The notes under the pieces: generated by a model
Databases searched by the model: none
Told to the model about the DNA's origin: nothing
Seen by the model: only the letters and a program-made list of their open reading frames with translations
Assembly: GCA_017460745.1 (NCBI GenBank)
Contig: JAFUAL010000052.1
Location: forward strand, 2,749 to 66,748
Direction of reading: 5' to 3'
DNA from: Bacilli bacterium
GTDB taxonomy: Bacteria; Bacillota_I; Bacilli_A; RF39; UBA660
DNA length: 64,000 nucleotides
Program-made: the position numbers and the translations under genes
Shown: piece by piece, positions 31,170-60,919 of the stretch
Layout of the letters: every line of letters starts with the position of its first letter
Position numbering within the stretch: the first letter of the stretch is position 1

Positions 31170-31191
31170 AAGTTTGAAAGGGGAGATTAAT

Positions 31192-33282
31192 ATGTATCCA
31201 AATGAGGAAAAAGAAGAAAATGTTTTAGAAAAATACGGACGTGATATTACAAAGGACGCTAAAAATGGTAAGATAGATCCAGTTATAGGACGAGATGAGG
31301 AGATTCGTGGAATAACTAGAATTTTATCAAGAAAAACTAAAAATAATCCCGTTTTAATTGGAGAACCAGGTGTTGGAAAAACAGCAATTGTTGAAGGTCT
31401 TGCTAATCGAATTATATCAGGCGATGTACCTAATAGTTTAAAAGATAAGAAGATATGGGAACTTGATTTAGCATCTTTAGTTGCTGGAGCAAAGTATCGT
31501 GGAGAATTTGAAGAACGTTTAAAAAATGTTTTAAATGAAATCAAAAAAAGTGAAGGTAGTATCATTATGTTTATTGATGAAATTCACATGATTGTTGGAA
31601 ATGGTGCAGAAGGAGCTATGGATACTTCTAATATTTTAAAACCACTTCTTGCTCGTGGCGAAATTCATGTAATAGGTGCAACAACTTTAAATGAATATCG
31701 TAAATATATTGAAAAAGATGGTGCCTTAGAACGACGTTTTCAAAAAATTAAAGTATCAGAACCAACTGTTGAAGATACTATTACAATTCTTCGTGGTTTA
31801 AAGGAAAGATTTGAGATACATCATGGTGTATCAATTACTGATAAAGCCTTAATTGCAGCTGCAACATTATCAAATCGTTATATTACAGATAGATACTTAC
31901 CTGATAAAGCAATAGATTTAGTAGATGAAGCCTGTGCAACTATTAGAGTTCAGATGGATTCAGTTCCAATTGAACTTGATACAGTAACTCGTAAAATATT
32001 ATCTCTTGAAATAGAACGTCAAGCAATAAGAAAAGAACGTGATGAATTATCCAAGAATAGACTTGATAAAATAGAAAAAGAATTAGTTAATTTAAAAGCT
32101 AGAGAAAAAGCATTAAAAGAATCTTGGAATCATGAGAAAAAAATAAATGAAGAAATAAAAGCAAAGAAGAAAGAATTAGAAAATGCAAGATTTACTTTGA
32201 GTCAAGCCGAGAATAAATATGATTTAGAAACAGCTGCAAGATTTAGACATGGTGAAATACCTCGACTTGAAAAAGAATTAGAAGAATTAAATTCCAGAGA
32301 GAAAAACAGAATTTTAAGTGATACAGTTTCTGATGAAGATATTGCTTATGTAATTTCAAAACTTACCAATATTCCTTTAACTAAATTAGTTTCTAGTGAA
32401 AAGGAAAAACTATTGAATTTATATTCTAATATGAAAAAGAATGTTATGGGACAAGATGAGGCTTTAAAGTTAGTCAGTGAATGTATTATTAAAAGTCGAA
32501 GTGGTATAAAAGATCCTAATAGACCAATTGGTTCATTTATCTTTTTAGGCCCAACTGGAGTTGGAAAAACTGAAGTAGCTAAAACTCTCGCCTATGAATT
32601 ATTTGATGATAAAAGTCATATGGTAAGAATTGATATGAGTGAATACATGGAAAAATTCAGTGTTTCTCGTCTTATTGGTTCGCCTCCTGGATATGTCGGT
32701 TATGAAGAAGGTGGCGAATTAACAGAAGCGGTTAGACGTAATCCATATAGTATAGTTTTATTTGATGAAATAGAAAAAGCTCATCCTGAAGTGTTGAATT
32801 TACTTCTACAAATACTTGATGATGGACGTATAACAGATTCTAATGGTCGTACTGTTGACTTTAAAAATACGATTATTATCATGACAAGTAATTTAGGAAG
32901 TGAATATGCTCTAGAAGAAAAAGACGATTTAGTAATGCATGAACTAGAAAGTACTTTTAGACCAGAATTTATTAATCGTATTGATGAAGTAATTATATTT
33001 AAACCACTTAGTCGTGAAGTAATTTATCAAGTACTTGATAAGATTATCAAGGAAATTGAAATGAGATTAAGTGATAAAAATATAAAAATCAAATTAACTG
33101 ATGCAGCCCGTGATTACTTAGTAGAGATAGGTTATGATGTCAATTATGGTGCTAGACCATTAAAAAGAGTTGTATCTCGTACCCTTGAAACAATCTTAGC
33201 TAATAAACTAATTGAAGGAAGTGTTCACTATGGTGAAACAGTATTATTTGATTATCAAAATAATGAGTTAATTATAAAATAG
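31192..33282 (+). CDS. clpB: ClpB-type disaggregase lacking the N-terminal Clp_N domain (696 aa)
   Basis: It starts directly at [30 protein letters not shown]1 has [15 protein letters not shown] and MFIDEIH, followed by a long coiled-coil M-domain. D2 has GPTGVGKTE and [10 protein letters not shown], with GARPLKR. RBS AAAGGGGA precedes ATG 31192. Confidence 0.93.
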
Positions 33283-41229: not shown

Positions 41230-42906
41230 GTGGATAATAATTTTAATAATTTAGAAAATAATATTAATAACATACCTAATAATATGCCTAATAATACGAT
41301 TAATATTAATAATGATTTAACTGTAAATCAAACTAATGTAAATAATCAAGTCTTAAATAATAATATAGAGATTCCTAATTTAAATCCAAAACCTAAAAAT
41401 AGTATAAGTGTATCTACAATTTTTGGAATAGTTATAGCAATTTTTGTTAGTTTATTTATTACTTTCTTTAAAACAAATGATGTTTTTAGTAAAAATAAAA
41501 CTCCTATTGAAGCATATCAGGTATATTTAAAAGGAGAAAGCATTGGTCTTATTAAAAGTGATACTGAATTATATGATTATATTAACAAGATGCAAAAGGA
41601 ATTGATGGATAAATATAAAGTAGATAATGTTTATATTCCAAATGATATAAATGTATCTCGTGATATTACTTATGAAGAAAACATTACATCTGTTAGTAAT
41701 ATATATAATATGATAAATGAAAAAGAACCATTTACTATTAAAGGTTATAGAGTATTAGTTGATAAAACAAATGCAACTGGGTATTTAGGTGATACAGCCT
41801 CAAAAGAAGATAAAGAAAAAGAAGCTAAGAAAATTTATATTAATATATTGGATAAAGAAATATTTAATGCTAGTGCTAAGAAAGTTGTTTTATCATTTGT
41901 ATCTGAACAAGATTTTAATGATTATGAAAATGAAATAGAAAAAACAATATTGGATACAGGAGAAAAATTAGAAAATTTATATATCGATGCTAAAATAACT
42001 TTTACAGATGCATATATTCCAGTTAATGAGAAAATTTATACAACGGAAGATGAGTTAACCGAATATTTATTATTTGGAGAAAATCAGAATATGTCAACTT
42101 ATATAGTACAAGATGGTGATACCTTAGCAACGGTTGCTGAGGCCAATAAAATGAATGTTAATGAAGTATTAATAGCAAATTCTAATTTAGGCAGTAGCAA
42201 TGCATTATTATATTCTGGTCAAAAATTAACAGTTGGAGTTTTGGATCCAGTTTTTCAGACAGTAAAAGAAATACATAAAGTTGAAGATCAAACTGTGGCT
42301 TATAAAACTGAAATCATTTATGATAATACTCAATTAGTCGGTTATCAAGCAACACGTACTGAAGGAAGCAATGGAATTAATAGGGTTACTCAAAAGATAA
42401 AAGAAGTAAATGGAGAAATAGTAACCGCTTTAATTTCTAATACTGAAGAAATTAAACCAGTAGTTGATGAAGTTATTGTTAAAGGTGGGAAACAACCTGT
42501 TATTGTATCAGCTGGGAACTGGGGATGGCCAACCAATATTCCGTATATTATTTCAAGTAATTATGGATGGCGTTGGGGACGACTTCATAGTGGTGTTGAT
42601 ATTTCAGGAACAGGATATGGTTCACCTATATATGCGGCTAAAGATGGAGTGGTAACAGAGATTAAATATAGTGGAACTCTTGGAAATTATGTGGAAATAT
42701 CTCATGAAAATGGCTATTATACAAGATATTTACATATGGTAGCCTTATCAACTTATGTCAAGGTTGGTGATAGAGTTAAAATGGGTCAAACAATAGGAGA
42801 TATGGGATGTACTGGAACTTGCTATGGAACACATTTACATTTTGAAATATGGCAAGGTAAGCCATATGGTGGTGGCCAAAGTTATAACCCATTGTTGTTC
42901 TATTAA
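41230..42906 (+). CDS. membrane-anchored peptidoglycan hydrolase with LysM, G5 and M23 domains
   Basis: Asn-rich N-terminus and one TM. LysM domain (YIVQDGDTLATVAEANKMNVNEVLIANS). G5-like segment (KTEIIYDNTQLVGYQATRTEGSNGINRVTQKIKEVNGEIV). M23 motifs HSGVDISG and GTHLHFEI. The GTG start is uncertain. Confidence 0.85.
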   Translation: MDNNFNNLENNINNIPNNMPNNTININNDLTVNQTNVNNQVLNNNIEIPNLNPKPKNSISVSTIFGIVIAIFVSLFITFFKTNDVFSKNKTPIEAYQVYLKGESIGLIKSDTELYDYINKMQKELMDKYKVDNVYIPNDINVSRDITYEENITSVSNIYNMINEKEPFTIKGYRVLVDKTNATGYLGDTASKEDKEKEAKKIYINILDKEIFNASAKKVVLSFVSEQDFNDYENEIEKTILDTGEKLENLYIDAKITFTDAYIPVNEKIYTTEDELTEYLLFGENQNMSTYIVQDGDTLATVAEANKMNVNEVLIANSNLGSSNALLYSGQKLTVGVLDPVFQTVKEIHKVEDQTVAYKTEIIYDNTQLVGYQATRTEGSNGINRVTQKIKEVNGEIVTALISNTEEIKPVVDEVIVKGGKQPVIVSAGNWGWPTNIPYIISSNYGWRWGRLHSGVDISGTGYGSPIYAAKDGVVTEIKYSGTLGNYVEISHENGYYTRYLHMVALSTYVKVGDRVKMGQTIGDMGCTGTCYGTHLHFEIWQGKPYGGGQSYNPLLFY

Positions 42907-44228: not shown

Positions 44229-44909
44229 TTAGTTCGTATGGTTTATGTATTTAATAACACTGTCAGCAAGTATTTCCATAGCATCAATTAATATTTCATT
44301 ATTTAAATTATAAATTTTATTTAAGGCAGATAATTCAGTACAACCAAGTATTATTTTCTCAGAACCATTATTTTTTAAATCATTAATAACTTTATATAAT
44401 TCATTTAAATCAATTTCTTTATTACTTTTAATACCATCATAAATAATTGAGGAAACTATTTCTTGATCTTTATCGTCTGGTACTATAAGATCTATATTAT
44501 AAAGATCAAGTAATTCTTTATAAATATAACTTTTGATAGTTCCTTCTGTTGCTAACAAACCTATTTTTTTAATATTATTTTTATTTAAATATTTAACTGT
44601 TTCTTCCACTATATTAATAAAAGGAATATTGGTATTTTTAGTTATTTCTTTATAAAAATATGAAGCTGTGTTACAAGGCATTACAATTAAATTACACTCA
44701 AATAATTCAAGTTTTTTTACCATTTCAAGGATTTTAAATACAGGGTTATCTTTTTTGTTATTCAAAATGTAAGATGTTCTATCAGGTGTAGTTGGATCAT
44801 TTATTACAATTATTTCTACATTTTTATCATTTTTTAATCTTTCATTTAGCATTTCCATAAATTTTACAGTTGCAAGAGGACCAAGACCTCCAATAATACC
44901 TATTTTCAT
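44229..44909 (-). CDS. aspartate racemase (Asp/Glu racemase family)
   Basis: GIIGGLGPLAT, first catalytic Cys in VMPCNTASYF, and second in ILGCTELS. Length is 226 aa. Confidence 0.85.
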   Translation of the reverse strand: MKIGIIGGLGPLATVKFMEMLNERLKNDKNVEIIVINDPTTPDRTSYILNNKKDNPVFKILEMVKKLELFECNLIVMPCNTASYFYKEITKNTNIPFINIVEETVKYLNKNNIKKIGLLATEGTIKSYIYKELLDLYNIDLIVPDDKDQEIVSSIIYDGIKSNKEIDLNELYKVINDLKNNGSEKIILGCTELSALNKIYNLNNEILIDAMEILADSVIKYINHTN

Positions 44910-45247
44910 TATATTGATTCCTTTCCAGTAAGTTTTATTATTTTATAAATGAAAGAGTTATCTTGTAAATCAAAATAATTATTTAAAATTGGAATATTCG
45001 TGATTGTTTTCAAATAATTATAAACTTCTTGATTATTAAAAGTTAATATAAGATAATCTGTATTAATATTTTCTAATTTTTTTATAATGCTGTTTAATTT
45101 CTTTTTTTGTAATAAACTATTACTTATTATAATATTCATTTTTATATGTTCTTGATCAGTATTAGCTTTGGTACAAGAAATGATTTTATTTACAAATGCT
45201 GTGGATAAATTAAAATTAGTTCCCAGTATTCCTATTGTTTTGTTCAT
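44909..45247 (-). CDS. racemase-like half-domain protein lacking the catalytic cysteine
   Basis: The 112 aa align with the N-terminal lobe of the adjacent racemase (TIGILGTNFNLSTAF versus KIGIIGGLGPLATVK). The PCNTA motif is replaced by TFNNQ. Its TAA overlaps the racemase ATG (TAATG). Confidence 0.5.
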   Translation of the reverse strand: MNKTIGILGTNFNLSTAFVNKIISCTKANTDQEHIKMNIIISNSLLQKKKLNSIIKKLENINTDYLILTFNNQEVYNYLKTITNIPILNNYFDLQDNSFIYKIIKLTGKESI

Positions 45248-45255
45248 AATTCCTC

Positions 45256-46455
45256 CTACTTGTAATATAATTTATATTTTTTATTATAATCTATTTTTTT
45301 TAGTTCCATAAATCTTTTAAAAGTTAAATCCTTTTTATAATATAAAACATTTTTATATTTTCTTTTTTTATACATTTCTTTGATTTTCTTTTTTATATTT
45401 TCATTTTTTACATACTTTAAAACAATTTTTTTGGGAAGAAAAGTCCAAAGATATTCAGTATTTAAATATTCTATTTGTGTTTCTTTATGGTATATTACAT
45501 CATCTATTAAATATTTTGTTATATTCATACCACCAAGTGTTACAAAGGAATGACTCCTTCCTTGTCTAATATTGATTTCAAACAATTTATATTGTTTAGT
45601 TTTTGCATTATATTTTAAATCAAAATTAGCATATCCATGATAATTAATACTTTCTAAGAATTGTTTCATTTTATCAAATATTTTTTGATCATAAGTTGGA
45701 ATAATTGCGTCATAGTCTCCATAAGAAGATGGTGCTTTATCTTCTAAAACAATTTGTCCTAATGCCATAAATGTTACTTTATGGTTACTATTAACATAGG
45801 CGTTTAATACACGAAGTGCTGTATCATCACCTTCAATATATTCCTGAATAATAAGATTACTTTTATAACTTGAATTATAAATTCTATTTAGAATATCATC
45901 TAGTTCATCTTTTGAGTAAATTATAAATACTTTTTTCTTTCCCCAAAAAGAAGCTTTCCAATAAGAAACACTATCACTAGGTTTTAATATAATTGGAAAA
46001 TCAAAATTTAGTTTTAAAGTTTTATAATTATCTTTTGTACAAATTATAGTTTTAGGATAATCTAAATTATATTCGTTACAAGTTTTATAAAAGTTTTCTT
46101 TAATGATTAGTTTATTCATAAGACTAGAATTAATGTAAGGAACAATAAATTTTTTTTCCAATACTTCTTTATTTTCAACAATTAGTTTTACATATACATC
46201 ACTACAACCAATAAGAATTAATTTAGAATTTTTATATTTATCATAAATATTATTTAAAACTTTAAAAAATACGTCCTTATTTTCTATCTTTTCATCTTGA
46301 TAAAATTCTAATAATTTAGAATATCGTGTTTCTATATACCTTTTTTTACAAATTGCGATACTTTTGATATAATATTGTTCATAAAATCCAATTGCCATTC
46401 CATAAACATTTCGATCACTTCCAAATAAAATGGGTATAAATTCTTGTACTTCCAT
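45256..46455 (-). CDS. ATP-grasp carboxylate-amine ligase, D-aspartate-ligase (Asl)-like, paralogue 1
   Basis: ATP-grasp hallmarks FPIILKPSD, IIQEYIEGDD and LFEINIRQGRS. It is 399 aa and lies upstream of the racemase genes in the same orientation. Confidence 0.7.
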   Translation of the reverse strand: MEVQEFIPILFGSDRNVYGMAIGFYEQYYIKSIAICKKRYIETRYSKLLEFYQDEKIENKDVFFKVLNNIYDKYKNSKLILIGCSDVYVKLIVENKEVLEKKFIVPYINSSLMNKLIIKENFYKTCNEYNLDYPKTIICTKDNYKTLKLNFDFPIILKPSDSVSYWKASFWGKKKVFIIYSKDELDDILNRIYNSSYKSNLIIQEYIEGDDTALRVLNAYVNSNHKVTFMALGQIVLEDKAPSSYGDYDAIIPTYDQKIFDKMKQFLESINYHGYANFDLKYNAKTKQYKLFEINIRQGRSHSFVTLGGMNITKYLIDDVIYHKETQIEYLNTEYLWTFLPKKIVLKYVKNENIKKKIKEMYKKRKYKNVLYYKKDLTFKRFMELKKIDYNKKYKLYYK

Positions 46456-46570
46456 AATTACCTCTTATATCGATATTATAACATTTTAGTAAAAAAAAAT
46501 ATACCGATTTTATAATTTCTTGACTTAAATATGGGTATATTATATACTGAATATGAAAAATGGAGGAAGT

Positions 46571-47830
46571 ATGCAATTAGTAGAATTAAATGAATTAGAA
46601 TATAAAGAATTTACAAGTAAGAATAAAGCGCATTTTTTAGAATCTTATGAATGGGGAATTATATCTAAATATAGAGGCTATAAAGTATATTATTTAGGAT
46701 TAAAAGATAAAGAAGAAGTAAAAGCAAGTGCTTTAGTTTTAGAAAAAAAATTATTGTTTGGATATACATATTTTTATATACCTCGAAGTTTTACAATTAA
46801 TTATAAAGATAAAGAATTATTAATGGAAATGGTAAGTAAATTAAAAGAATTTGCTAAGTCTAAAAAGGTTATTTTTATAAGAATTGATCCAGCTATAAAA
46901 CTTCATACTATAGATGAAAATGCTAATGTTATAGATGGCGAAAATAACTATGATATTGTAGATAATTTGAAAAATGTTGGATTTAAACACTTAAAATTAA
47001 CAAAATATTTTGAAACTAATCAACCAAGATTTACTTTTAGAATACCTTTAAAAAATAGTTTAGAAGAAATAGAAAAAAGATATTCTTCTACTACGAAATC
47101 AAGAATAAAAAAAGCTATAAACTCTTGTGCATTTGTAGAAATAGGGAATAAAAATGATGTAAAAGAGTTTTCTAGACTTATGAAATTAACAGAGAAAAGA
47201 CAAGATTTTTATTCACATAATAGCGAATTTTTTGAAAAATTTTATGAAGTATTCAACAAGAATGATATGGTAACTTTATATTTAGGCAAAATTGATCTTT
47301 TAAAATTATCAGAAAAATTAGAAAAAGAAAAAGAAGTATTAGAAGAAGAATACAATGCTTTAAAAGATATTGATAGTAAAAAAAATAATAATAAAAGGAA
47401 AGAAATAGAGAAAAATTTAATTTCTATTAAAACTCAATTAGATAATTTAGAAAATAAGCCAAAGAAAACTATAGTTGTATCAAGTTATTTAATAGTAAAA
47501 TATAATGATATGGCATGGGCACTTTATGCAGCTAATGATATGAATTATAAAACATTATATGTAAATTATTTAGTTTATCAGACTCAAATAAAAGATTGCT
47601 TTGAAGAAGGAATAAAAGTTTTTGATGTTTTTGGAACTATAGGTGATCCAAATGGTAATAGTTCGCTTTTAGGCCTTCATGATTTTAAGAAAAAATGGGG
47701 TGGAGAATATACAGAGTTTATTGGAGAATTTGATTTAATTTTAAATAAATTTATGTATTTTATTTATACAAAATTAATACCAATATATCATAATATGGTG
47801 AATAAAAAATTAAAAAAGGAAGTGAAATAA
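46571..47830 (+). CDS. FemABX-family peptidoglycan aminoacyltransferase
   Basis: The N-terminus (LNELEYKEF...HFLESYEWG) and the central coiled-coil insertion (KIDLLKLSEKLEKEKEVLEEEYNALK) are typical of Fem proteins. The C-terminus reads LHDFKKKWGGEYTEFIGEFD. RBS GGAGGAAG precedes ATG 46571. Confidence 0.85.
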   Translation: MQLVELNELEYKEFTSKNKAHFLESYEWGIISKYRGYKVYYLGLKDKEEVKASALVLEKKLLFGYTYFYIPRSFTINYKDKELLMEMVSKLKEFAKSKKVIFIRIDPAIKLHTIDENANVIDGENNYDIVDNLKNVGFKHLKLTKYFETNQPRFTFRIPLKNSLEEIEKRYSSTTKSRIKKAINSCAFVEIGNKNDVKEFSRLMKLTEKRQDFYSHNSEFFEKFYEVFNKNDMVTLYLGKIDLLKLSEKLEKEKEVLEEEYNALKDIDSKKNNNKRKEIEKNLISIKTQLDNLENKPKKTIVVSSYLIVKYNDMAWALYAANDMNYKTLYVNYLVYQTQIKDCFEEGIKVFDVFGTIGDPNGNSSLLGLHDFKKKWGGEYTEFIGEFDLILNKFMYFIYTKLIPIYHNMVNKKLKKEVK

Positions 47831-49029
47831 TGGACTTTTTTGGAGTAGTACTTGGTGGAGATATGAATACTTATGGTGTTGCTAGGGCATTTTATGAAGA
47901 ATATCATAAGAAGACAGTTGTTATAGGCAAGCATCCTTTATATCCAACAAGTCATAGTAAAATTATAGAAGGATATTATTATGATACAATCTTAGAAGAT
48001 GATACTTTAGTTAAAGCCTTAACAGATTTAGAGAAGAAATATCCTAAAACTAAAAAAATTCTCTTTGGAAATACAGATTTTTATGTTGAGCATATTATGA
48101 AAAATAGAGAAAAAATTGAAAAAATTAGTAATAACTATATAATACCAATGGTAAACTTTGAAATGTTTAAAGAGTTATTTTGTAAAGAAACATTTTATAA
48201 ATTATGTGAAAAATATGGATTAAATTATCCTAAATATCAAATATATGATTTTAAAAAAGATAGTTTAGAAAAGTATAAAATCGATTTTGAATATCCTATT
48301 TTTATAAAACCAGCAGATACTGTTGTTTATTCAGAATTTAATTTTGATGGTAAACAAAAAGGATATAAAATAGAAAATGAGAAAAATTTTAAAGAAGTTA
48401 TAGAAAAAATAAAAAAAAGTGGTTTTAAAGATAAATTTATCGTTCAAGAATATATTGAAGGTAACGATGAATCAATGTATGTGTTTACTGCCTATGTTTC
48501 AAAAAATCATAAAGTAAAAGTTATTAGTGCAGGGCGTATATTAATGCATGATCGAACTCCAGAATTAATAGGGAATTATTCAGCAATCACAAATGCATAT
48601 GAAAAAGAACTTAGTTTTCAAATAAAAGATTTTCTTGAAAAAATAAAATTTACTGGTATTTGTCATTTTGATGTTCAATATGACATTAATAGAAAAAAGT
48701 TTTATGTTTTTGAAATGAATATTAGACAAGGAAGAAGTAATTTTTACACATATGCCAGTGGTGCTAATTTAATGTCTCAAATAGTAGATGATTATATCTA
48801 TAACAAAGATGATAAGTTTTATATTGCCAATAATAAATTTACTGTTAGTATTATACCTAAATTTTTATTAAAATATTGTTTAAAGAAAAATAATCAAAAT
48901 CCACAATTTGGTAAGTTTTATAGATTTGCTTTGGCGAGTTATGATAGAAATGTATTTAGGTATGTGTATCAAATGATATGGGATTATCGTATATTAAAGG
49001 GATTTTTTAAATATAATAAAAAAAGATAA
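47830..49029 (+). CDS. ATP-grasp carboxylate-amine ligase, D-aspartate-ligase (Asl)-like, paralogue 2
   Basis: YPIFIKPAD, IVQEYIEGND and VFEMNIRQGRS. It is 399 aa. Its start overlaps the Fem stop (TAATG). Confidence 0.7.
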   Translation: MDFFGVVLGGDMNTYGVARAFYEEYHKKTVVIGKHPLYPTSHSKIIEGYYYDTILEDDTLVKALTDLEKKYPKTKKILFGNTDFYVEHIMKNREKIEKISNNYIIPMVNFEMFKELFCKETFYKLCEKYGLNYPKYQIYDFKKDSLEKYKIDFEYPIFIKPADTVVYSEFNFDGKQKGYKIENEKNFKEVIEKIKKSGFKDKFIVQEYIEGNDESMYVFTAYVSKNHKVKVISAGRILMHDRTPELIGNYSAITNAYEKELSFQIKDFLEKIKFTGICHFDVQYDINRKKFYVFEMNIRQGRSNFYTYASGANLMSQIVDDYIYNKDDKFYIANNKFTVSIIPKFLLKYCLKKNNQNPQFGKFYRFALASYDRNVFRYVYQMIWDYRILKGFFKYNKKR

Positions 49030-49095
49030 AATTTATATTTTATTTTGCATTCTAAGAAAAATATGATATAATTTTTTTGATAAAGTAGGTGAGAT

Positions 49096-50304
49096 ATGAA
49101 AAAATATGTCAAGATAATATTTACTTTTGTAATGCTCTTTTTTTTGATTGGAATAGATTATGTAGATGCTAAGACTCTTAGAGATTTAAAAAATGAACTT
49201 GCAGCAATTAAAGAAAAAAAATCTCAAAATGATTCTCAAAAGGCATTGACTCAAGGTGAAATAAATTCTGTTAATTCTAATATAAAAAATATTAGAAATA
49301 AAATAACCGATAGTGAAAATACTATAAAGAAATTAACAAACGAGATTCAAGAATTAAATGATAGTATTCAGCAAAAAGAAATAGAAATAAAAGAAATAAT
49401 TCATTTTTTACAGGTATCAAATGGAGAAAATGCCTATTTAGAATATATATTTGGTTCTAAGGATATAACAGATTTTATATATAGAAGTGCTGTTAGTGGT
49501 CAATTGGTATCGTATAATGATTCTTTGATAAATGAATACAATGATAATATTGAAAAAAACAAGAACAAACAAATTGAATTAAAACAAGAAATGGAAACTT
49601 TAACAGTTAAACAAAAAGATTTAGAAACTGAATTATCCAAACTTGGGCAAGAAATGGCAGATTTGGATAGTATTTCGGTTGATATTGATGCTGAAATAAA
49701 GGCTCAAGAAAAAGTTATTGATTATTATGAAAAAACACTTGAGTGTAAGTTAGATGATAATATAAATAATTGTGGTAAGGTGCCTTATTCCGGTAAATTT
49801 GTAAGACCTATTCAAAATGGTAGAATTACCAGTCCATTTGGTTCCCGTTGTTATTGGAATCAAACTCAAGGAAGAAATGTTTGTACATATCATTATGGTA
49901 TTGATATAGCTGGTGGAGATACTCAGGTTTATGCGGCAGCTCCAGGAACAGTTGCAAATATTTTATGGTATCAAAGTTGTGGTGGTAATATGTTGTTTGT
50001 TAATCATAATGTTGGAGGAGTATACTACACAACTGGTTACTATCATTTGAAATCAATTAATGTAAAAATTGGTGATTATGTTGATCAAAATACAGTTATT
50101 GCCATTACAGGAGGAGATTCATCTACTTGGGGATATGATAAATGTTCAACTGGACGTCACTTACATTTTGCTGTTGCAACTGGATTATATATGAAAGATT
50201 ATATATCATGGTCTACGTATCAATCAAGAAATATAAATCCAATAACTGTTGTAAATTTTCCTGCATATGGAATATGGTTTTCAAATAGAGTTACTAAATA
50301 TTAG
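49096..50304 (+). CDS. secreted coiled-coil M23 peptidoglycan endopeptidase (EnvC/PcsB-like architecture)
   Basis: Signal peptide, then about 190 aa of heptad-rich coiled coil. M23 motifs HYGIDIAG and GRHLHFAV. Confidence 0.85.
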   Translation: MKKYVKIIFTFVMLFFLIGIDYVDAKTLRDLKNELAAIKEKKSQNDSQKALTQGEINSVNSNIKNIRNKITDSENTIKKLTNEIQELNDSIQQKEIEIKEIIHFLQVSNGENAYLEYIFGSKDITDFIYRSAVSGQLVSYNDSLINEYNDNIEKNKNKQIELKQEMETLTVKQKDLETELSKLGQEMADLDSISVDIDAEIKAQEKVIDYYEKTLECKLDDNINNCGKVPYSGKFVRPIQNGRITSPFGSRCYWNQTQGRNVCTYHYGIDIAGGDTQVYAAAPGTVANILWYQSCGGNMLFVNHNVGGVYYTTGYYHLKSINVKIGDYVDQNTVIAITGGDSSTWGYDKCSTGRHLHFAVATGLYMKDYISWSTYQSRNINPITVVNFPAYGIWFSNRVTKY

Positions 50305-50372: not shown

Positions 50373-51671
50373 ATGGAAATAATAAATAATTTTTTATGGA
50401 GTATATGTTTAGTATTATTAATAGTATCAGGTATTTATTTTTCATTTAAATTAAAATTTTTACATTTAAATTTTGTTCATATTTTTAAAAGTTTAAAGGG
50501 AAAGAGTGATAAAAGCGGAATATCTCCTTTTGAATCACTTATGATATCACTTGGAGGTTGTATTGGAGTAGGGTCTTTGGCCGGGATTGCCCTTGCAATT
50601 TTTAAAGGAGGAGTAGGTACTATATTTTGGATATTACTATCTTCTTTAATAATTGCTCCTATTTCCATTGTTGAAAATAGTCTAGCATCAATTTATCGTG
50701 AAAAAACAGCATCTGGTTATGTTGGTGGACCAGCTTATTATATAAAACGTGGACTAGGTTTTAAAAAAATAGCTCTTTTGTATGCTATTATTGTATCAAT
50801 TGCTTATTTATTTGGATTTTTAACAATTCAATCAAATACAATTGCTAGATCTATTACTGCTTTTTTTGATGTACCAAGTATTCTTTTAGGTATAATAATT
50901 GGAATATTATCTTTTATAATAATAAAAAAAGGATTAAAGGGGATTGCTAATTTTTCTAAGGTTTTTGTTCCTTTAATGGCCTTCATTTATGTTGGGGTAA
51001 CTTTATTTATAATATTAAAAAATATAAATTTAATTCCAAGTATATTTAGTACAATATTGAAAGAAGCCTTTAATCCGTCCTCTTTTAAATACGGAATTCT
51101 TTCATCAATTATAATAGGCCTTGAAAGAGGAATATTTGCAAGTGAAGTTGGAACAGGTACAAGTGCTATAGCAAGTGGTTCAAGTAATTTAAAAAATCCA
51201 ATTAAACAAGGTTTAGTTGGGGTTGTTGGGGTTTATTTCACGACATTTGTTATTTGTTTAGGAACGGCTTTGATTATTTTAACTAGTAATTATTCTCCAG
51301 ATAATTATTTAGTAGTAAATGGAATAGAAATAACTCTTAATGCTATGATTTATCATTTAGGACTTTTTGGAAATCTTGTTTTATATTTTAGTTTAATTGC
51401 TTTTTCTTTTTCTACAATTATATCAGGATATTTTTATGTTGAATCGAATTTAAAATTTATTTTTCCTAAACTATCTGATAATAAACTTTTAATATTAAAA
51501 TTATTTACTTGTTTTTTACTTGGAATTGCACCTATTATTAGACCTGATTTTATTTGGAATATAAGTGATTTATTGGTTGCTCTTTTAATTATTATTAATG
51601 TAAACTGTTTATTAAATTTAAAAAATGATGTTATAATGGAACAAGAAGTAGGTGTATATGATGACAAATGA
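50373..51671 (+). CDS. alanine/glycine:cation symporter (AGCS family)
   Basis: GISPFESLMISLGGCIGVGSLAGIALAI..GG.G.IFW and GGPAYYIKRGLG, with about 10-11 TM helices. Confidence 0.85.
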   Translation: MEIINNFLWSICLVLLIVSGIYFSFKLKFLHLNFVHIFKSLKGKSDKSGISPFESLMISLGGCIGVGSLAGIALAIFKGGVGTIFWILLSSLIIAPISIVENSLASIYREKTASGYVGGPAYYIKRGLGFKKIALLYAIIVSIAYLFGFLTIQSNTIARSITAFFDVPSILLGIIIGILSFIIIKKGLKGIANFSKVFVPLMAFIYVGVTLFIILKNINLIPSIFSTILKEAFNPSSFKYGILSSIIIGLERGIFASEVGTGTSAIASGSSNLKNPIKQGLVGVVGVYFTTFVICLGTALIILTSNYSPDNYLVVNGIEITLNAMIYHLGLFGNLVLYFSLIAFSFSTIISGYFYVESNLKFIFPKLSDNKLLILKLFTCFLLGIAPIIRPDFIWNISDLLVALLIIINVNCLLNLKNDVIMEQEVGVYDDK

Positions 51672-52480: not shown

Positions 52481-54775
52481 ATGCAAGAAAAGTTTTCAGA
52501 AGAAGCAAGAAAAATATTAAAAAATGCCAAACATGAAATGCAAGAATTAAAACATCCTTTTGTAGGAAGTGAACATTTAATACTTAGTATTTTAAGTTTT
52601 AAAGATTTAAGTATAACATCTAAATTAAATGATTATTCAATTACTTATGATAAATTTAAAAAAGAACTTATAGATATAATTGGAATAGGAGTTAGTAAGA
52701 ATTCTTATTTTATATATACCCCTCTTTTAAAAAGAGTTATAGAAAATGCAATTATAGATACTAAAGAAGAGGGGATTGGAGAAGTTAGTCCAACTGCTTT
52801 GTTCTTTGCAATCCTTGAAGAAGGTGAAGGGGTTGGAATTAGAATACTTACTAATCTAGGAGTTAATATAGATGAATTATACAAAGAAATTGATATAAGA
52901 GAAGAAGGTAAATTTAGAAAAAGCAAAGGTAAGAAAAAATTATCTATATATGAAAATAGTATTGATTTAGTAGAACGTGCAAGAAATGGTAAGATTGATC
53001 CAGTTATAGGTCGAGATTATGAGACAAATAGATTAATTGAAATATTACTAAGAAAGAATAAAAATAATCCTTTATTACTTGGAGAAGCAGGAGTAGGAAA
53101 AACAGCAATAGTAGAGAATTTAGCTTTAAGAATTGCACATGGTGATGTTCCAGATGAATTACTTAACAAAAAATTACTTTCAATTTCTATGGCTAGTTTA
53201 GTAGCTGGAACGAAATATAGAGGTGAATTTGAAGAAAAAATTGAAAAAATAGTTAAAGAAATAGAGGAAAGTCCAGATATTATAGTTTTTATAGATGAGA
53301 TACATTCTATAGTTGGAGCAGGTGGAGCTGAAGGAGCTATTGATGCTGCTAATATTTTAAAACCAGCTTTAGCTCGTGGTAAATTTAGACTAATTGGAGC
53401 AACTACCATTAAAGAATATAAAGATACAATAGAAAAAGATAAAGCTTTAAGTAGAAGATTACAACCAATTAATGTATTAGAACCAGATATTGAAGAAACC
53501 AAAAATATTTTAAAAAAGATTAAACCAATATATGAAGAATATCATTCAGTAATAATAGATGACATGGTAATAGATGCAATTGTTAATTTAAGTAATAAAT
53601 ATCTTTTTAATAGAAAGAATCCTGATAAATCAATAGATATACTAGATGAAGTATGTACAAAGTGCTCTTTAGTAAAAGATAAAAATACTTTAAAAATGGA
53701 AGAATTAAATAATAAATTAAAAGTAATAACAAAGAATAAAAATAAAAGTATAGTAAGTGGAGATTTTAAAACAGCTTCCAAATTAAAAGAAGAAGAATTA
53801 ACTATTCAAGATACTTTAAATACATTAAAATTAAATAATAATGTTAAAAAAAATGTAACTATAAATGATGTTAGAGTTGTTGTTAAAGATAAATCGAATG
53901 TTCCTGTTTTTGAACTTGATAAAGATATTATGAAAAGTATTAAAAAGTTAGAACGTGATTTAAAAAATAAAATAATAGGACAGGATGATGCTATTAAAAA
54001 GTTAATAAATGAAACTACTAAGTTAAAACTTGGATTAAAGCAAGAAAATATGCCAATATCGTTTTTATTTACTGGAAAAAGTGGAGTAGGTAAAACAGAA
54101 CTTGTTAAAACTTATGCTAATTTATTAAATATGAATTTAATAAGAATTGATGCTTCAGAGTATAATGAACAACATGCAATAAGTAAAATAATAGGTTCTC
54201 CACCAGGCTATGTCGGATACTCAGATATAAGCATATTAGATGAAGTAAAACATAATCCTTATTCAGTTATATTAATTGATGAAATAGATAAGTCTTGTAG
54301 TAGTTTTATAAATTTATTTTTGCAAATATTAGATGAAGGATTTATAACCAGTTCTAATTTAGAAAAAGTATATTTTAATCATTCAATTATTATTATGACT
54401 TGTAATAAATCATATAATGTAAGTTCTATAGGATTCAATGATAATAAGGAAGCATTTGTTAAAAATAATTTACAAGAAAATTTCAGTTTAGAATTTTTAA
54501 ATAGAATTGGTTGTATAATAAATTTCAATGATTTAACAAAATTAGATGTTAAAAAAATAGTTGAAAAGGAAGTAAGTGAAATTATTAATAAATTTAAAAA
54601 TCAAGGAATTGATTTGAAAATACAAAAATCGGTCGTAAATGAAATTGTTAGTATGTCAAATTATAAGGAATGTGGAGCTCGTATGATAAAAAAATTAATT
54701 GAAGATAAAATAGATAATATTGTTATAGAAAATATTATAAACGGTAAAAAAGAAATAGAGATTTGTAATATATAA
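52481..54775 (+). CDS. clpC: ClpC-like Hsp100 ATPase (Clp_N, D1, UVR-like linker, D2)
   Basis: Two Clp_N repeats (FVGSEHLILSIL and VSPTALFFAILEE). D1 has [15 protein letters not shown] and VFIDEIH. The UVR-like linker is SGDFKTASKLKEEEL. D2 has GKSGVGKTE and ILIDEIDK. An IGF ClpP-docking tripeptide (SSIGFND) is present. Confidence 0.85.
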   Translation: MQEKFSEEARKILKNAKHEMQELKHPFVGSEHLILSILSFKDLSITSKLNDYSITYDKFKKELIDIIGIGVSKNSYFIYTPLLKRVIENAIIDTKEEGIGEVSPTALFFAILEEGEGVGIRILTNLGVNIDELYKEIDIREEGKFRKSKGKKKLSIYENSIDLVERARNGKIDPVIGRDYETNRLIEILLRKNKNNPLLLGEAGVGKTAIVENLALRIAHGDVPDELLNKKLLSISMASLVAGTKYRGEFEEKIEKIVKEIEESPDIIVFIDEIHSIVGAGGAEGAIDAANILKPALARGKFRLIGATTIKEYKDTIEKDKALSRRLQPINVLEPDIEETKNILKKIKPIYEEYHSVIIDDMVIDAIVNLSNKYLFNRKNPDKSIDILDEVCTKCSLVKDKNTLKMEELNNKLKVITKNKNKSIVSGDFKTASKLKEEELTIQDTLNTLKLNNNVKKNVTINDVRVVVKDKSNVPVFELDKDIMKSIKKLERDLKNKIIGQDDAIKKLINETTKLKLGLKQENMPISFLFTGKSGVGKTELVKTYANLLNMNLIRIDASEYNEQHAISKIIGSPPGYVGYSDISILDEVKHNPYSVILIDEIDKSCSSFINLFLQILDEGFITSSNLEKVYFNHSIIIMTCNKSYNVSSIGFNDNKEAFVKNNLQENFSLEFLNRIGCIINFNDLTKLDVKKIVEKEVSEIINKFKNQGIDLKIQKSVVNEIVSMSNYKECGARMIKKLIEDKIDNIVIENIINGKKEIEICNI

Positions 54776-57398: not shown

Positions 57399-58685
57399 AT
57401 GTATAATAATACCATAAGAGAGGTGTTGGTCTTGAAGATAGTAGCACTTAGTAAAGAAGAGTTTGATGACTTTGCCTATAATCATAAATATAGTACGTAT
57501 TATCAAACATCTAGTTATGGTGATGTCTCAAAATATGATGGATTAAATACTTTTTATATAGGGTTTGTTGAAGATGGAAATTTAGTTGGGGCAACTTTAT
57601 TTCTTTATAAAACTATATATTTATATTATAAATATGCATATGCTCCACGTGGATTTTTAATTGATTATACAGATCGTAAATTGGTTAAAAATGTCACTAA
57701 AGGTCTTATAAATTTACTTAGAAAGCAACATTATGCGTTTATAAAAATAGATCCACCAATCATTTGTAGTGAACGAGATAGAAATGGAAATATAATATAT
57801 TTTAGTAATACTGTAAATGGTATTTTAAATTATTTACAAGAGACTGGATATAGGCATCAAGGATTTAATAAATATTTTGAAAATTATAAACCTAGATTTA
57901 TAGCATTTGCTAATTTACAAAATGATTTAAAAACAATATATGCAAAAATCGATAATGAAGCAAAAAAAATAATTGAAGAAGCAACAAATGCTGGTGTTGA
58001 AATAGTCCAAGATAAAGATGGTAATATAGATGAGTTATATAAATTTATAACTATAAAAAATAAAAGAAGAAAAAAAAGATATTATAGAGGAATGTATAAT
58101 AACTTTAGTATAAATAATAAAATGGATATATTCTTTATTAATGTAAATACAGATAAATATTTAAATAATATGAAATATATGTATGATAAAGAATCCATTA
58201 ATAATGAAGAATATGCAAATCTTATTCAAGATACAAGTATAGCAGCTCGTGAAAAACAAACAATAATTAATAATAAAATGGAATCTGATAAAAGACTTAA
58301 TTTTTATAAAAATGAGCTTATCTATGCTACTAAATTATCTAAAGAATATCCTGATTTTATAACAATAGGAGCTGCTTTTACAATTAAGCATAATAAAGGG
58401 GTTGAATTAATAATTGATAGTTATTTGGAAGAGTATTTAAAATTTAATCCAAGATATGTGCTTCTTTGGGAATTAATAAAAAAATATAAACAAGAAGGAT
58501 TTATGTATTTTAATTTAAATGCCGTTGTAGGTGAATTTACTAAAGAGAATTTAGGTAAATTTAATACTTTAAATAATATTAAATTAAAATTTAATGCAAC
58601 TGTTATGGAATATATAGGAGAGTTTGATTTAGTTATTAATGATAGAATTTATACTAAATTTAAAGAAAAAATAGAAAAGAAATAA
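57399..58685 (+). CDS. FemABX-family peptidoglycan aminoacyltransferase (second copy)
   Basis: LSKEEFDDFAYNHKYSTYYQTSSYG, YAPRGFLIDY and FIKIDPPI, with a central insertion and a C-terminal NIKLKFNATVMEYIGEFD. It is collinear with 46571-47830. The true start may be TTG 57432. Confidence 0.8.
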   Translation: MYNNTIREVLVLKIVALSKEEFDDFAYNHKYSTYYQTSSYGDVSKYDGLNTFYIGFVEDGNLVGATLFLYKTIYLYYKYAYAPRGFLIDYTDRKLVKNVTKGLINLLRKQHYAFIKIDPPIICSERDRNGNIIYFSNTVNGILNYLQETGYRHQGFNKYFENYKPRFIAFANLQNDLKTIYAKIDNEAKKIIEEATNAGVEIVQDKDGNIDELYKFITIKNKRRKKRYYRGMYNNFSINNKMDIFFINVNTDKYLNNMKYMYDKESINNEEYANLIQDTSIAAREKQTIINNKMESDKRLNFYKNELIYATKLSKEYPDFITIGAAFTIKHNKGVELIIDSYLEEYLKFNPRYVLLWELIKKYKQEGFMYFNLNAVVGEFTKENLGKFNTLNNIKLKFNATVMEYIGEFDLVINDRIYTKFKEKIEKK

Positions 58686-58832: not shown

Positions 58833-59783
58833 ATGGCAAGCCATGCAGTAAAATTTAAAGAAGAATTAAAGCCAGGGGAAAAAGTACCACTTTGCTTTGA
58901 TGAATGTGCTAAGATAATGTTTGCAAATCCAAAACATATGGAACCACTTATTTTATTACTATCTAAAGTATTAAGAGTAGAATATGATGAACTAGTAGAT
59001 AAAGTAGAACTAGCACCAACTACTTCACGAAATAATATAATAGGGGCTAAGAAAACGGATAGAGATATTGTAGTCTATATAAAAGAGGATATAAAAGGTA
59101 AAATAGTAATAGAAGTAAATATGAGTGAAAGTTATTATGAAGCAATAACTAATAAGAGCTTATATTATATGTTTGAAACAGCAGGAAGTGGATTAAAAGA
59201 AAGTGAAAACTATGATAAAATAGAACCAACATTTTTAATTTGTTTTAACACTTTTTATGTAGATAATATCCATAAAAAAATATTTGATGAATATTATTTT
59301 AGAAATGATGAAGGATATATATTAACAACAAAAGAAAAAATAATAGAAATAAATATTGCAGCGTGTTATCAATCATGGTATAATGGTACATATAAAGCAC
59401 TAACAAATATATATGAGAAAGACTTATTATTACTAGGAGCAGCAATGTATACAAAAGAGATAAAAGAGTTTAATAAGTGTATAGAAGAGATAATGATAAG
59501 TCGTGATATAAAAAATATAGTGGAGGAGGTATCAGAAAGAATGAATGAAAATGAAGAATTAAAAGTAAGATACTATGATTTTTTAGAAGAGACTAGAAGA
59601 TTAAATGATTCCATTATAAGTGATGAAAAGAGAAAATCAAGACATGAAGGATTACAAGAAGGTATAGAGCAAACCAAAAAAGAAATTGTTTTAAATATGT
59701 ATAATAAGAAATATGATTTAAGTATTATAGGTGATGCAACAAATTTATCCATAAATGAAATTAACGAAATAATAAATCATTAA
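58833..59783 (+). CDS. PD-(D/E)XK nuclease family (Rpn-like) putative transposase/recombination nuclease
   Basis: CFDECAKIMFANPKHMEPLILLLSKVL...TDRDIVVYI...KIVIEVNM fits the D...E-x-N/K nuclease core. The C-terminal HTH-like tail is DLSIIGDATNLSINEINEII. Confidence 0.65.
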   Translation: MASHAVKFKEELKPGEKVPLCFDECAKIMFANPKHMEPLILLLSKVLRVEYDELVDKVELAPTTSRNNIIGAKKTDRDIVVYIKEDIKGKIVIEVNMSESYYEAITNKSLYYMFETAGSGLKESENYDKIEPTFLICFNTFYVDNIHKKIFDEYYFRNDEGYILTTKEKIIEINIAACYQSWYNGTYKALTNIYEKDLLLLGAAMYTKEIKEFNKCIEEIMISRDIKNIVEEVSERMNENEELKVRYYDFLEETRRLNDSIISDEKRKSRHEGLQEGIEQTKKEIVLNMYNKKYDLSIIGDATNLSINEINEIINH

Positions 59784-59818: not shown

Positions 59819-60823
59819 TTAATATTTATTTTTATTAATTGGTTCTACATGCCAATCTTCTTTATAACTTGCATTTAGAAGTGGAAATGCTAACCCATAT
59901 TTATAAGCATTAGAGTGAGCCCATCCCATACTTGGACAATTTGCATCGTTTCTATAATATGGACATACACTTCCGTCACTTTGGTAAAATTCTAAGTCAC
60001 TTGCAATACCAAATCCGTGCAATGAGTGACCAGGAGCCGCTGCACGACCAGAATCCATTGTACTATAGTAGTAACTTTGAGTACTATAACGTCTACAACC
60101 TTGAGTACTCATAGTAATTGTATATCCGTTTTGTCTTGCATCATCTATAAATCTTTGAAGTCTTGTATAAAAATAATTATTATATCCATAACTGTTATTA
60201 AAACCTTCGGCTTCGGGATTAGATGGACAAAACATTCCAGAATAAGTATTGTTATTTCCATATATGTAGGTTGGATAATAGAAAACTCCATCAATTACGT
60301 AGACACTATTTTGAATATTAGTATCTGTTTCATGTAAGAAATTATCTTCGATTACTTCTTCTTTTTTCTCGTTAGCTTCTTGAGTTTCTTCTTCATTATC
60401 ATTTTCTATTATAATATTAACTTCTTTATATACTAATTTACTTAAAGTACTATTACTTTTATTAGTTAATATATTTTCTAAATAATTATTTTTTAGTTCT
60501 TTATCAATATCTTTGCCTTCCAGAAAGTAAAAACTTTTCCTATATTCTTGATAAATATTTGGAGTAGCATTTATATAACATATATTATGACTATTATTTA
60601 GCATGTTATGAAGAATTAAAGATAATACTACAATAGTTATGACATAATAGAGAGGTTTTATTTTTGTTTTTAAGTATGATTTATTTATTTTAATTTTCTT
60701 TTTTATTATTTTAACGAAATTTATATAAAGGTAAATAAGAGGAATTATTATGATATTAAAAATTAATATATATTTTAAGTAATATGTAAATGACAATAAA
60801 TATATATTATTACATGTAAACAT
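59819..60823 (-). CDS. membrane-anchored VanY-like M15 D-alanyl-D-alanine (or L,D-) carboxypeptidase
   Basis: Two N-terminal TM helices. The zinc/active-site motifs are PGHSLHGFGIASDL (SxHxxGxAxD) and EDWHVEP. RBS AAAGGGGGG precedes ATG at 60823. The ORF-track start at 60880 is probably too long. Confidence 0.8.
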   Translation of the reverse strand: MFTCNNIYLLSFTYYLKYILIFNIIIIPLIYLYINFVKIIKKKIKINKSYLKTKIKPLYYVITIVVLSLILHNMLNNSHNICYINATPNIYQEYRKSFYFLEGKDIDKELKNNYLENILTNKSNSTLSKLVYKEVNIIIENDNEEETQEANEKKEEVIEDNFLHETDTNIQNSVYVIDGVFYYPTYIYGNNNTYSGMFCPSNPEAEGFNNSYGYNNYFYTRLQRFIDDARQNGYTITMSTQGCRRYSTQSYYYSTMDSGRAAAPGHSLHGFGIASDLEFYQSDGSVCPYYRNDANCPSMGWAHSNAYKYGLAFPLLNASYKEDWHVEPINKNKY

Positions 60824-60919
60824 AATTATTCCCCCCTTTAAAAACGCGCTTATTATACTACAAATTTGTATATTTGTCAAAAAATGCCTTATATTAGAGT
60901 GTTGGTTTTAGAAAAAGTC

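Follow-up and report, generated by a model that had tools for sequence, protein, structure and literature searches.

The 64,000-nucleotide stretch of contig JAFUAL010000052.1 (assembly GCA_017460745.1) considered here, hereafter the window, belongs to the genome of an uncultured low-GC representative of Bacillota from the gut or rumen and has a G+C content of about 25%. It carries a peptidoglycan locus in which the gene for a FemABX transferase (Fem1) overlaps the gene for an Asl-like ATP-grasp ligase (grB), next to divergently oriented genes for a second ligase of this kind (grA) and an aspartate racemase. What is new here is a distinct Fem-coupled ligase clade, found so far only in uncultured lineages, together with the presence of both ligase paralogues in one locus. 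The locus probably makes a mixed bridge of the A4α type, where Fem1 would add glycine or an L-amino acid to L-Lys3, grB would cap this residue with D-Asp, and grA would make Lys-D-Asp. The idea of a mixed side chain produced by both routes was already put forward in the initial annotation of this DNA, and it is the reading that we favour as the best one.

The racemase gene, a degenerate half-racemase ORF, and grA are located on the minus strand, while fem1, grB, and the genes for an M23 peptidase and a symporter are located on the plus strand. The grA product (45256-46455, -; 399 aa) is assigned to the conventional Asl-like ATP-grasp ligases by homology and by its place in the tree, and its gene is separated from the plus-strand genes by an intergenic region of about 115 bp (46456-46570). 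Fem1 (46571-47830, +) is a FemABX transferase of the FmhB/FemX type with a coiled-coil arm, and grB (47830-49029, +; 399 aa) is an Asl-like ligase of a separate clade. All ORF coordinates in the initial annotation agree with the ORF listing of the window, and the overlap that it described between the fem stop codon and the grB start codon takes the form TAATG, with the TAA at 47828-47830 and the ATG at 47830. Related ligase loci were collected by scanning a single genome for each species with grB relatives as seeds, which returned 80 loci (designated below by numbers with the prefix L). Five further species-level genomes (L003, L005, and L009-L011) show the same arrangement, and because of this recurrence it should not be ascribed to chance.

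As read from gene order and phylogeny, Fem1 and grB constitute a translationally coupled two-enzyme module that has been inherited as a unit. In all 32 grB-clade loci with available upstream sequence, a fem gene lies directly upstream of grB on the same strand, at a distance of -11 to +89 nt, overlap being usual, while an upstream Fem was found in 0 of about 49 canonical Asl-like loci. The Fem proteins coupled to grB are monophyletic, with Fem2 (see below) and the short Fems outside their clade, and the Fem tree mirrors that of grB. In the window, the longest fem reading frame spans 46553-47830, and the likely start is at 46571, a position that follows the Shine–Dalgarno sequence GGAGGAAG and agrees with the public gene call (419 aa). 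The assignment of the product to the FemABX family is borne out by a match to PF02388 of 269.5 bits (cut-off 24; model positions 2-402 of 406). Its closest solved structure by sequence is that of Staphylococcus aureus FmhB, the lipid II:glycine glycyltransferase (6snr, E = 6e-40); the alignment spans residues 15-411, including the helical arm, and the match to FemA scores 87.5 bits.

The two ligases of the window are 37% identical over 354 aa (E = 7e-82). As initially noted, both are 399 aa long and have motifs in common (FPIILKPSD in grA and YPIFIKPAD in grB, QEYIEGDD and QEYIEGND, FEINIRQGRS and FEMNIRQGRS), among which the KP, QEY, and E-x-N-x-R-Q-G-R-S elements are conserved in both proteins. 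Profile searches, suggested in the initial annotation along with a ligase phylogeny and a comparison of genome neighbourhoods, matched grA and grB to Pfam models (including the ATP-grasp ones) and NCBIfam models only below the cut-offs, and a search of solved structures by sequence with either protein returned nothing meaningful. The AlphaFold model of grB (mean pLDDT 91.2) has an ATP-grasp fold, and its comparison with solved structures gives PylC as the top match (E = 1.6e-16), along with PurK and L-amino-acid ligases (1e-16 to 1e-13). PylC acylates the lysine ε-amine with a D-amino acid. At the level of the model, it is clear that grB has the fold of an ATP-grasp ligase with an intact catalytic core.

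When the window proteins were compared with the 80 loci, the latter split cleanly into a grB-like set and a set closer to grA. All loci with a ligase of 44% or higher identity to grB come from metagenome-assembled genomes labelled Bacilli, Clostridia, Anaerovoracaceae, or Mogibacterium; those closer to grA include Kurthia, Enterococcus timonensis, Ligilactobacillus, Anaerococcus, Peptococcaceae, Peptoniphilaceae, Longicatena, and Clostridium paraputrificum. In a neighbour-joining tree, grB and 33 relatives are monophyletic, with a long branch and a bootstrap value of 100/100. The grA protein falls outside this clade, within a broad canonical Asl-like group (with Enterococcus, Kurthia, Ligilactobacillus, and Anaerococcus), where the bootstrap value of its sister group is only 22/100. 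Across the grB and canonical clades, 52 positions are identical and at least 90% conserved, including the E-x-N-x-R-Q-G-R-S motif, and 13 positions, fixed within each clade, tell grB from the canonical ligases. An exhaustive search of 1.84 billion cluster representatives revealed only about three full-length grB-clade clusters at 50% identity, after which the score drops sharply from 350 to 272 bits; the wider family comprises 239 clusters at E <= 1e-30. On sequence criteria, the grB clade is a paralogous subfamily of Asl-like ligases and contains no orthologue of the canonical ones. The initial description of the two proteins as Asl-like ligases holds for grA, which resembles the canonical Asl type, and has to be revised for grB, which belongs to a distinct Fem-coupled clade and is no equivalent copy.

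Full-length homologues of grA with 44-47% identity are present in Planococcaceae (Rummeliibacillus, Viridibacillus, Ureibacillus, Planococcus, and relatives), one of them bearing the JGI name 'D-aspartate ligase', and the homologues from Enterococcus timonensis and Ligilactobacillus are 36-39% identical to grA over the full length. Many of the named taxa in the grA group have A4α walls with D-Asp or D-Glu bridges. grA is predicted to be a D-Asp:L-Lys3 ligase of the conventional Asl type. Among distant relatives of grB (27-30% identity), four proteins (P0433, P0451, P0474, and P0484) are fused to an N-terminal sugar aminotransferase of the DegT/DnrJ/EryC1 type, and P0433 (1235 aa) additionally bears a C-terminal FemAB-like domain; these fusions point to a glycan-decorating branch of the ligase family.

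The genes that recur around fem-grB in related genomes are those of peptidoglycan and D-Asp metabolism. A MurE-like Mur ligase is encoded directly upstream of fem in six distinct loci, all of them from Anaerovoracaceae or Mogibacterium (L002, on the same contig as L027, and L021, L026, L029, L032, and L079); the MurE-like protein of L002 is devoid of the DNPR motif. A gene for a MurJ-like flippase adjoins fem-grB in L016, L019, and L022. An AsnB-type glutamine amidotransferase is encoded directly downstream of grB in L008, L012, and L017 and within the same operon in L019, where the gene order is fem, grB, murJ-like, asnB, racemase; genes for AsnB homologues (46-62% identity) also immediately precede canonical Asl-like genes in L034, L063, and L076. 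An aspartate racemase is found in 11 grB-clade loci besides the window, including L003, L005-L007, L009-L011, L019, L021, and L022, and in L021 its gene lies directly downstream of grB. MurE-like, MurJ-like, AsnB, and racemase neighbours thus place the grB clade in a peptidoglycan and D-Asp context, and the juxtaposition of both bridge-building enzyme classes in such a context, as proposed in the initial annotation, is borne out by the protein families and by the recurrent neighbours. No glycosyltransferase, flagellin, or sugar-aminotransferase genes recur beside fem-grB across the 33 loci.

The best evidence that grB uses D-Asp comes from two loci, L006 and L007, that have no grA yet keep an intact racemase with both cysteine motifs beside fem-grB. 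According to the grB tree, the absence of grA in these two loci reflects two separate losses, and only about 170 bp lie there between the half-racemase ORF and fem. In the window, the racemase gene (44229-44909, -; 226 aa) encodes a RacD-like protein that scores 212 bits against TIGR00035 (cut-off 93) and 124 bits against PF01177. The cysteine motifs by which it was initially recognised, PCNTA and GCTE, are both in place (MPCNTA at C79 and LGCTEL at C190), and its best match among solved structures in a sequence search is the aspartate racemase 1jfl (E = 7e-42). We infer that this gene product is an aspartate racemase supplying D-Asp.

The neighbouring 112-aa ORF (44909-45247, -) matches only the N-terminal half of TIGR00035, with a score below the cut-off (26.8 bits, E = 3.5e-6). 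It is devoid of the catalytic cysteine, having LTFNNQE in place of MPCNTAS, and fails both tests for a racemase. Its counterparts are separate ORFs of 107-127 aa in L003 and L005-L007, while in L009-L011 the half-racemase forms an in-frame C-terminal extension of grA (L009: 7166-8707, -). Two other proteins, P0363 and P0365 (649 and 677 aa), combine an Asl-like ligase with a full-length Asp/Glu racemase. Both kinds of fusion suggest that the half-racemase is what remains of a decayed ligase–racemase fusion that has kept some role.

Mixed bridges of the kind considered here are documented. The premise of the initial annotation that a given organism uses a single bridge route turned out to be wrong, since the combination of D-Asp with glycine or L-residues in one bridge is an established chemotype, exemplified by Dermacoccaceae with L-Lys-Gly-L-Ser-D-Asp (PMC6113628), Sporosarcina highlanderae with L-Lys-L-Ala-D-Asp (PMC10628120), and Bifidobacterium bifidum, where mass spectrometry detected a Ser-Asp bridge (bioRxiv 10.1101/2023.04.17.537164). 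Both series of residues occur in side chains and are built by the two enzyme classes (PMC2655667). A4α chemotypes such as L-Lys-L-Ala-D-Asp, L-Lys-Gly-L-Ser-D-Asp, and Orn-Ser-Asp need both tRNA-dependent and ATP-dependent steps, in line with the gene content of the locus, although they represent the chemistry of cultured Actinomycetota and Planococcaceae. In the literature searched, no enzymes were found assigned to mixed A4α bridges, nor were any identified that join a D-dicarboxylic acid to a tRNA-delivered residue.

The following pathway can be envisaged for the locus. The racemase would convert L-Asp to D-Asp, and grA would activate the β-carboxyl of D-Asp as an acyl phosphate and join it to the ε-amine of L-Lys3 in the nucleotide precursor. 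Aminoacyl-tRNA would donate glycine or an L-amino acid (Ala, Gly, and Ser being the likely candidates), which Fem1 would attach to the side chain of Lys3, and D-Asp would then be ligated onto the new α-amine by grB, a diverged paralogue of Asl. The product would be L-Lys-X-D-Asp of the A4α type, where D-Asp serves as the distal acceptor in transpeptidation. With both ligases in the genome, two bridge forms, Lys-D-Asp and Lys-X-D-Asp, may coexist on the stems; another possibility is a longer bridge to whose synthesis Fem2 contributes as well. The order of the reactions, Fem before grB, and the substrates of both enzymes are our proposals; the order is suggested by that of the genes, fem and then grB, and by the distal placement of the D-acid in known mixed chemotypes as they are conventionally written. 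A third point in its favour is that a change of acceptor would account for how far grB has diverged.

Several points weigh against this pathway. The sequence would not by itself fix the order of the Fem and grB steps. In Sporosarcina species, mixed bridges go together with canonical-clade ligases, so that a new acceptor does not require a new clade. About two thirds of the grB-clade loci show no racemase within 10 kb. Finally, membership in the Asl family is deduced from the homologues in Enterococcus, Ligilactobacillus, and Planococcaceae and from database names rather than from the Aslfm/AslA sequences themselves; the Enterococcus timonensis homologue used as a query returned 'carboxylate--amine ligases' of Lactobacillaceae and Planococcaceae and none from E. 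faecium, and JGI names some members of the family 'D-aspartate ligase'.

Some of the same observations speak for the main rival scheme, in which grA and grB catalyze the same reaction, the attachment of D-Asp to L-Lys3, grB being an ordinary Asl copy within a Fem operon and Fem1 either extending the chain from the α-amine of D-Asp (Lys-D-Asp-X) or using other stems. The 52 positions common to both clades include all catalytic motifs, L006 and L007 manage with grB and a racemase alone, and Sporosarcina, as a mixed-bridge genus, gets by with canonical-clade ligases. Nevertheless, a functionally identical enzyme is hardly expected to form a long-branched clade with full bootstrap support, 13 fixed substitutions, and strict Fem coupling, and both the fem-then-grB gene order and the conventional notation of documented mixed bridges, with D-Asp or D-Glu distal to the L-residue, are at odds with this scheme, which we consider unlikely. 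If, instead, grB ligated an acid other than that used by grA (e.g., D-Glu via its γ-carboxyl, or another D- or L-amino acid), the locus would install two chemically distinct residues by ATP-dependent ligation and one tRNA-dependent residue. Taxa with D-Glu bridges, such as Planococcus, Anaerococcus, and Peptoniphilaceae, are represented in the broad Asl-like family, and homologues from all three are present in our searches; the clade-specific substitutions and the lack of a nearby racemase in most grB loci would fit as well. Against this stand the retention of the aspartate racemase with grB where grA has been lost (L006 and L007), the position of its gene directly downstream of grB in L021, and the occurrence of one and the same AsnB subfamily alongside both grB and canonical Asl-like genes, which together leave a different acid with little likelihood.

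The remaining alternatives move the target away from the Lys3 side chain or the product away from known chemistry. That the Fem–grB pair decorates an amino sugar of a surface glycan or teichoic acid, or another non-stem target, might be suspected from the adjacent FemAB-like and ATP-grasp genes in the type-B flagellin locus of Clostridioides difficile (PMC5207246) and from the fusions of distant grB relatives to DegT-type aminotransferases, in P0433 also to a Fem-like domain. But the recurrent neighbours of fem-grB are MurE-like, MurJ-like, AsnB, and racemase genes and no glycan genes, grB shares more identity with canonical Asl-like proteins (33-41%) than with the sugar-linked fusions, and Fem1 matches FmhB over its full length, so such a target appears very improbable. 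Still harder to accept is the ligation of an amino acid by one of the ATP-grasp enzymes to the α-carboxyl of D-Glu2, as in B-type peptidoglycan. This possibility had been raised in the initial annotation, and we found nothing to support it, the associated racemase and amidotransferase pointing to D-Asp. Some related metagenome-assembled genomes are labelled Erysipelotrichaceae (L010), a family that includes B-type organisms, and to our knowledge the enzymes of B-type bridges are poorly defined. However, such bridges need a diamino acid, and no lysine or ornithine racemase is found among the accompanying genes, which instead encode an aspartate racemase and an AsnH-like amidotransferase; we know of no described B-type bridge that contains D-Asp, and both ligases belong within or beside a family of taxa with A4α-type walls. 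A more daring scheme, to which we assign a low probability, makes Fem–grB an obligate two-enzyme machine that acts on lipid II instead of the nucleotide precursor and, together with grA and Fem2, builds a chemically undescribed bridge, for instance one with two D-Asp residues separated by tRNA-delivered residues or a branched side chain, the half-racemase serving as a D-Asp-binding adaptor that passes the substrate on to the ligases.

Of these readings, the mixed A4α bridge remains the preferred one, and its components can be set against known systems. In Lactococcus lactis, racD forms an operon with aslA, and AsnH amidates the bridge D-Asp after ligation (PMC4155827). The grA gene fits the pattern of Aslfm/AslA and RacD from Enterococcus faecium and L. 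lactis, where an ATP-grasp carboxylate–amine ligase of about 400 aa is encoded beside an aspartate racemase (PMC4155827), and an AsnH-like amidotransferase likewise accompanies members of the family. From Aslfm/AslA, compared here through homologues, grB differs in forming a clade of its own, in the Fem gene that invariably precedes it, and probably in its acceptor; a further difference between the window locus and the Aslfm/RacD systems is the degenerate half-racemase ORF. As for the FemABX family (FmhB/FemX, FemA, and FemB of S. aureus, FemX of Weissella viridescens), Fem1 matches PF02388 in full length and has the coiled-coil arm, while Fem2 is nearer to FemA. Known Fem systems work without an ATP-grasp partner, whereas Fem1 of the window is translationally coupled to one.

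The initial annotation knew of no described system with the composition of the locus. This is true insofar as we found no paper on a Fem-coupled Asl-like ligase, with subscription journals covered in part, so that the absence is no proof; it is not entirely true in that Asl and Fem genes adjoin in the cultured species Clostridium paraputrificum (L037, 7642-12280; also L036 and L035). There, genes for a racemase, a MurE-like protein, an Asl-like ligase, and a short FemX stand in a row. In contrast to the window, the ligase gene precedes the Fem gene, the Fem protein is short (349 aa) and has no coiled coil, resembling W. viridescens FemX, and the ligase belongs to the canonical clade, which marks this pairing as an independent association. 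In C. difficile, the FemAB-like CDR20291_0244 adjoins the ATP-grasp CDR20291_0245 (PMC5207246). These two genes lie in a flagellar locus with glycosyltransferases and a sugar aminotransferase, none of which, as judged by context, is found beside fem-grB of the window.

A second FemAB-family transferase, Fem2 (57399-58685, +; 428 aa), is encoded about 7 kb downstream, beyond the range of the initial annotation. It scores 182 bits against PF02388 and is 24% identical to Fem1; among solved structures it is closest by sequence to S. aureus FemA (63.7 bits vs 51 bits for FmhB). Its orthologue occupies the same relative position in L004. Near Fem2, on the minus strand, there is an ORF for a protein resembling VanY-type D-alanyl-D-alanine carboxypeptidases (59819-60880; PF02557, 27.9 bits). 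Among close relatives, Fem diverges much faster than grB: in L005, grB is 79% and Fem 53% identical to the window proteins, and in L003 the values are 84% and 79% (intervals compared, 8807-10000 in L005 and 8678-10000 in L003). Such fast divergence could reflect a change in the amino acid added by Fem. A 993-aa ORF in L020, at first taken for a grB fusion, was dropped from consideration; it is most likely a run-on of grB into an alpha-amylase-like gene, which is separate in L016.

Downstream of grB lies the gene for a secreted M23 peptidase with a coiled coil and a PcsB/EnvC-like architecture (49096-50304, +), as initially proposed; the domain scores are 47 bits for CC_PcsB (cut-off 27) and 65 bits for Peptidase_M23 (cut-off 28.7). 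Its translation contains a signal-like N-terminal segment and the metal-ligand motifs HxxxD and HxH (HYGID and HLH); with the catalytic residues present, the peptidase is predicted to be active. It differs in this from both of its namesakes, since EnvC has a degenerate LytM domain and PcsB a CHAP domain. The peptidase gene accompanies the locus only in the closest relatives, L003-L005, and therefore lies outside the conserved core. The next gene encodes an AgcS-type alanine/glycine:cation symporter (50373-51671, +; PF01235, 337 bits; TIGR00835, 324 bits), which is also found downstream of fem-grB in L003-L007 and L009-L011 and gives a weak hint at Ala or Gly as the Fem substrate. The peptidase and the symporter are lineage-specific additions rather than core parts.

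The intergenic region between grA and fem contains a promoter-like sequence, TTGACT-17-TATACT, at 46520-46548. Promoter-like matches in the AT-rich window are no more frequent than expected by chance (80 found vs 70 +/- 9.5 expected), terminator consensus matches are likewise at chance level, and Rfam and tRNA scans of the window revealed no T-box, riboswitch, or tRNA gene. Elsewhere in the window, a second M23 peptidase (41230-42906, +) with LysM and G5 domains and an Asn-rich N-terminal region is encoded between dnaB and a gene of the metallo-β-lactamase fold, and it is syntenic in L003, L005-L007, and L009-L010. Mobile elements are represented by an ISL3-family transposase (3758-5056, +) and a PD-(D/E)XK transposase-like ORF (58833-59783, +). 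Two Clp-type ATPase genes are located about 20 kb apart (31174-33282, + and 52481-54775, +): the first product has AAA_2, AAA_lid_9, and ClpB_D2-small domains, and the second, ClpC-like as judged from its translation, is conserved in related loci.

For fifty years, taxonomists have made use of bridges mixing glycine or L-residues with D-Asp or D-Glu, and the locus offers testable candidate enzymes for mixed A4α bridges rather than a new principle. The grA/grB pair provides natural paralogues for studying the evolution of acceptor specificity among Asl-type ligases. In uncultured gut and rumen Bacillota, the module serves as a marker of a predicted cell-wall chemotype that bears on which muropeptides are released to the host and on how susceptible these bacteria are to lysins and antibiotics.

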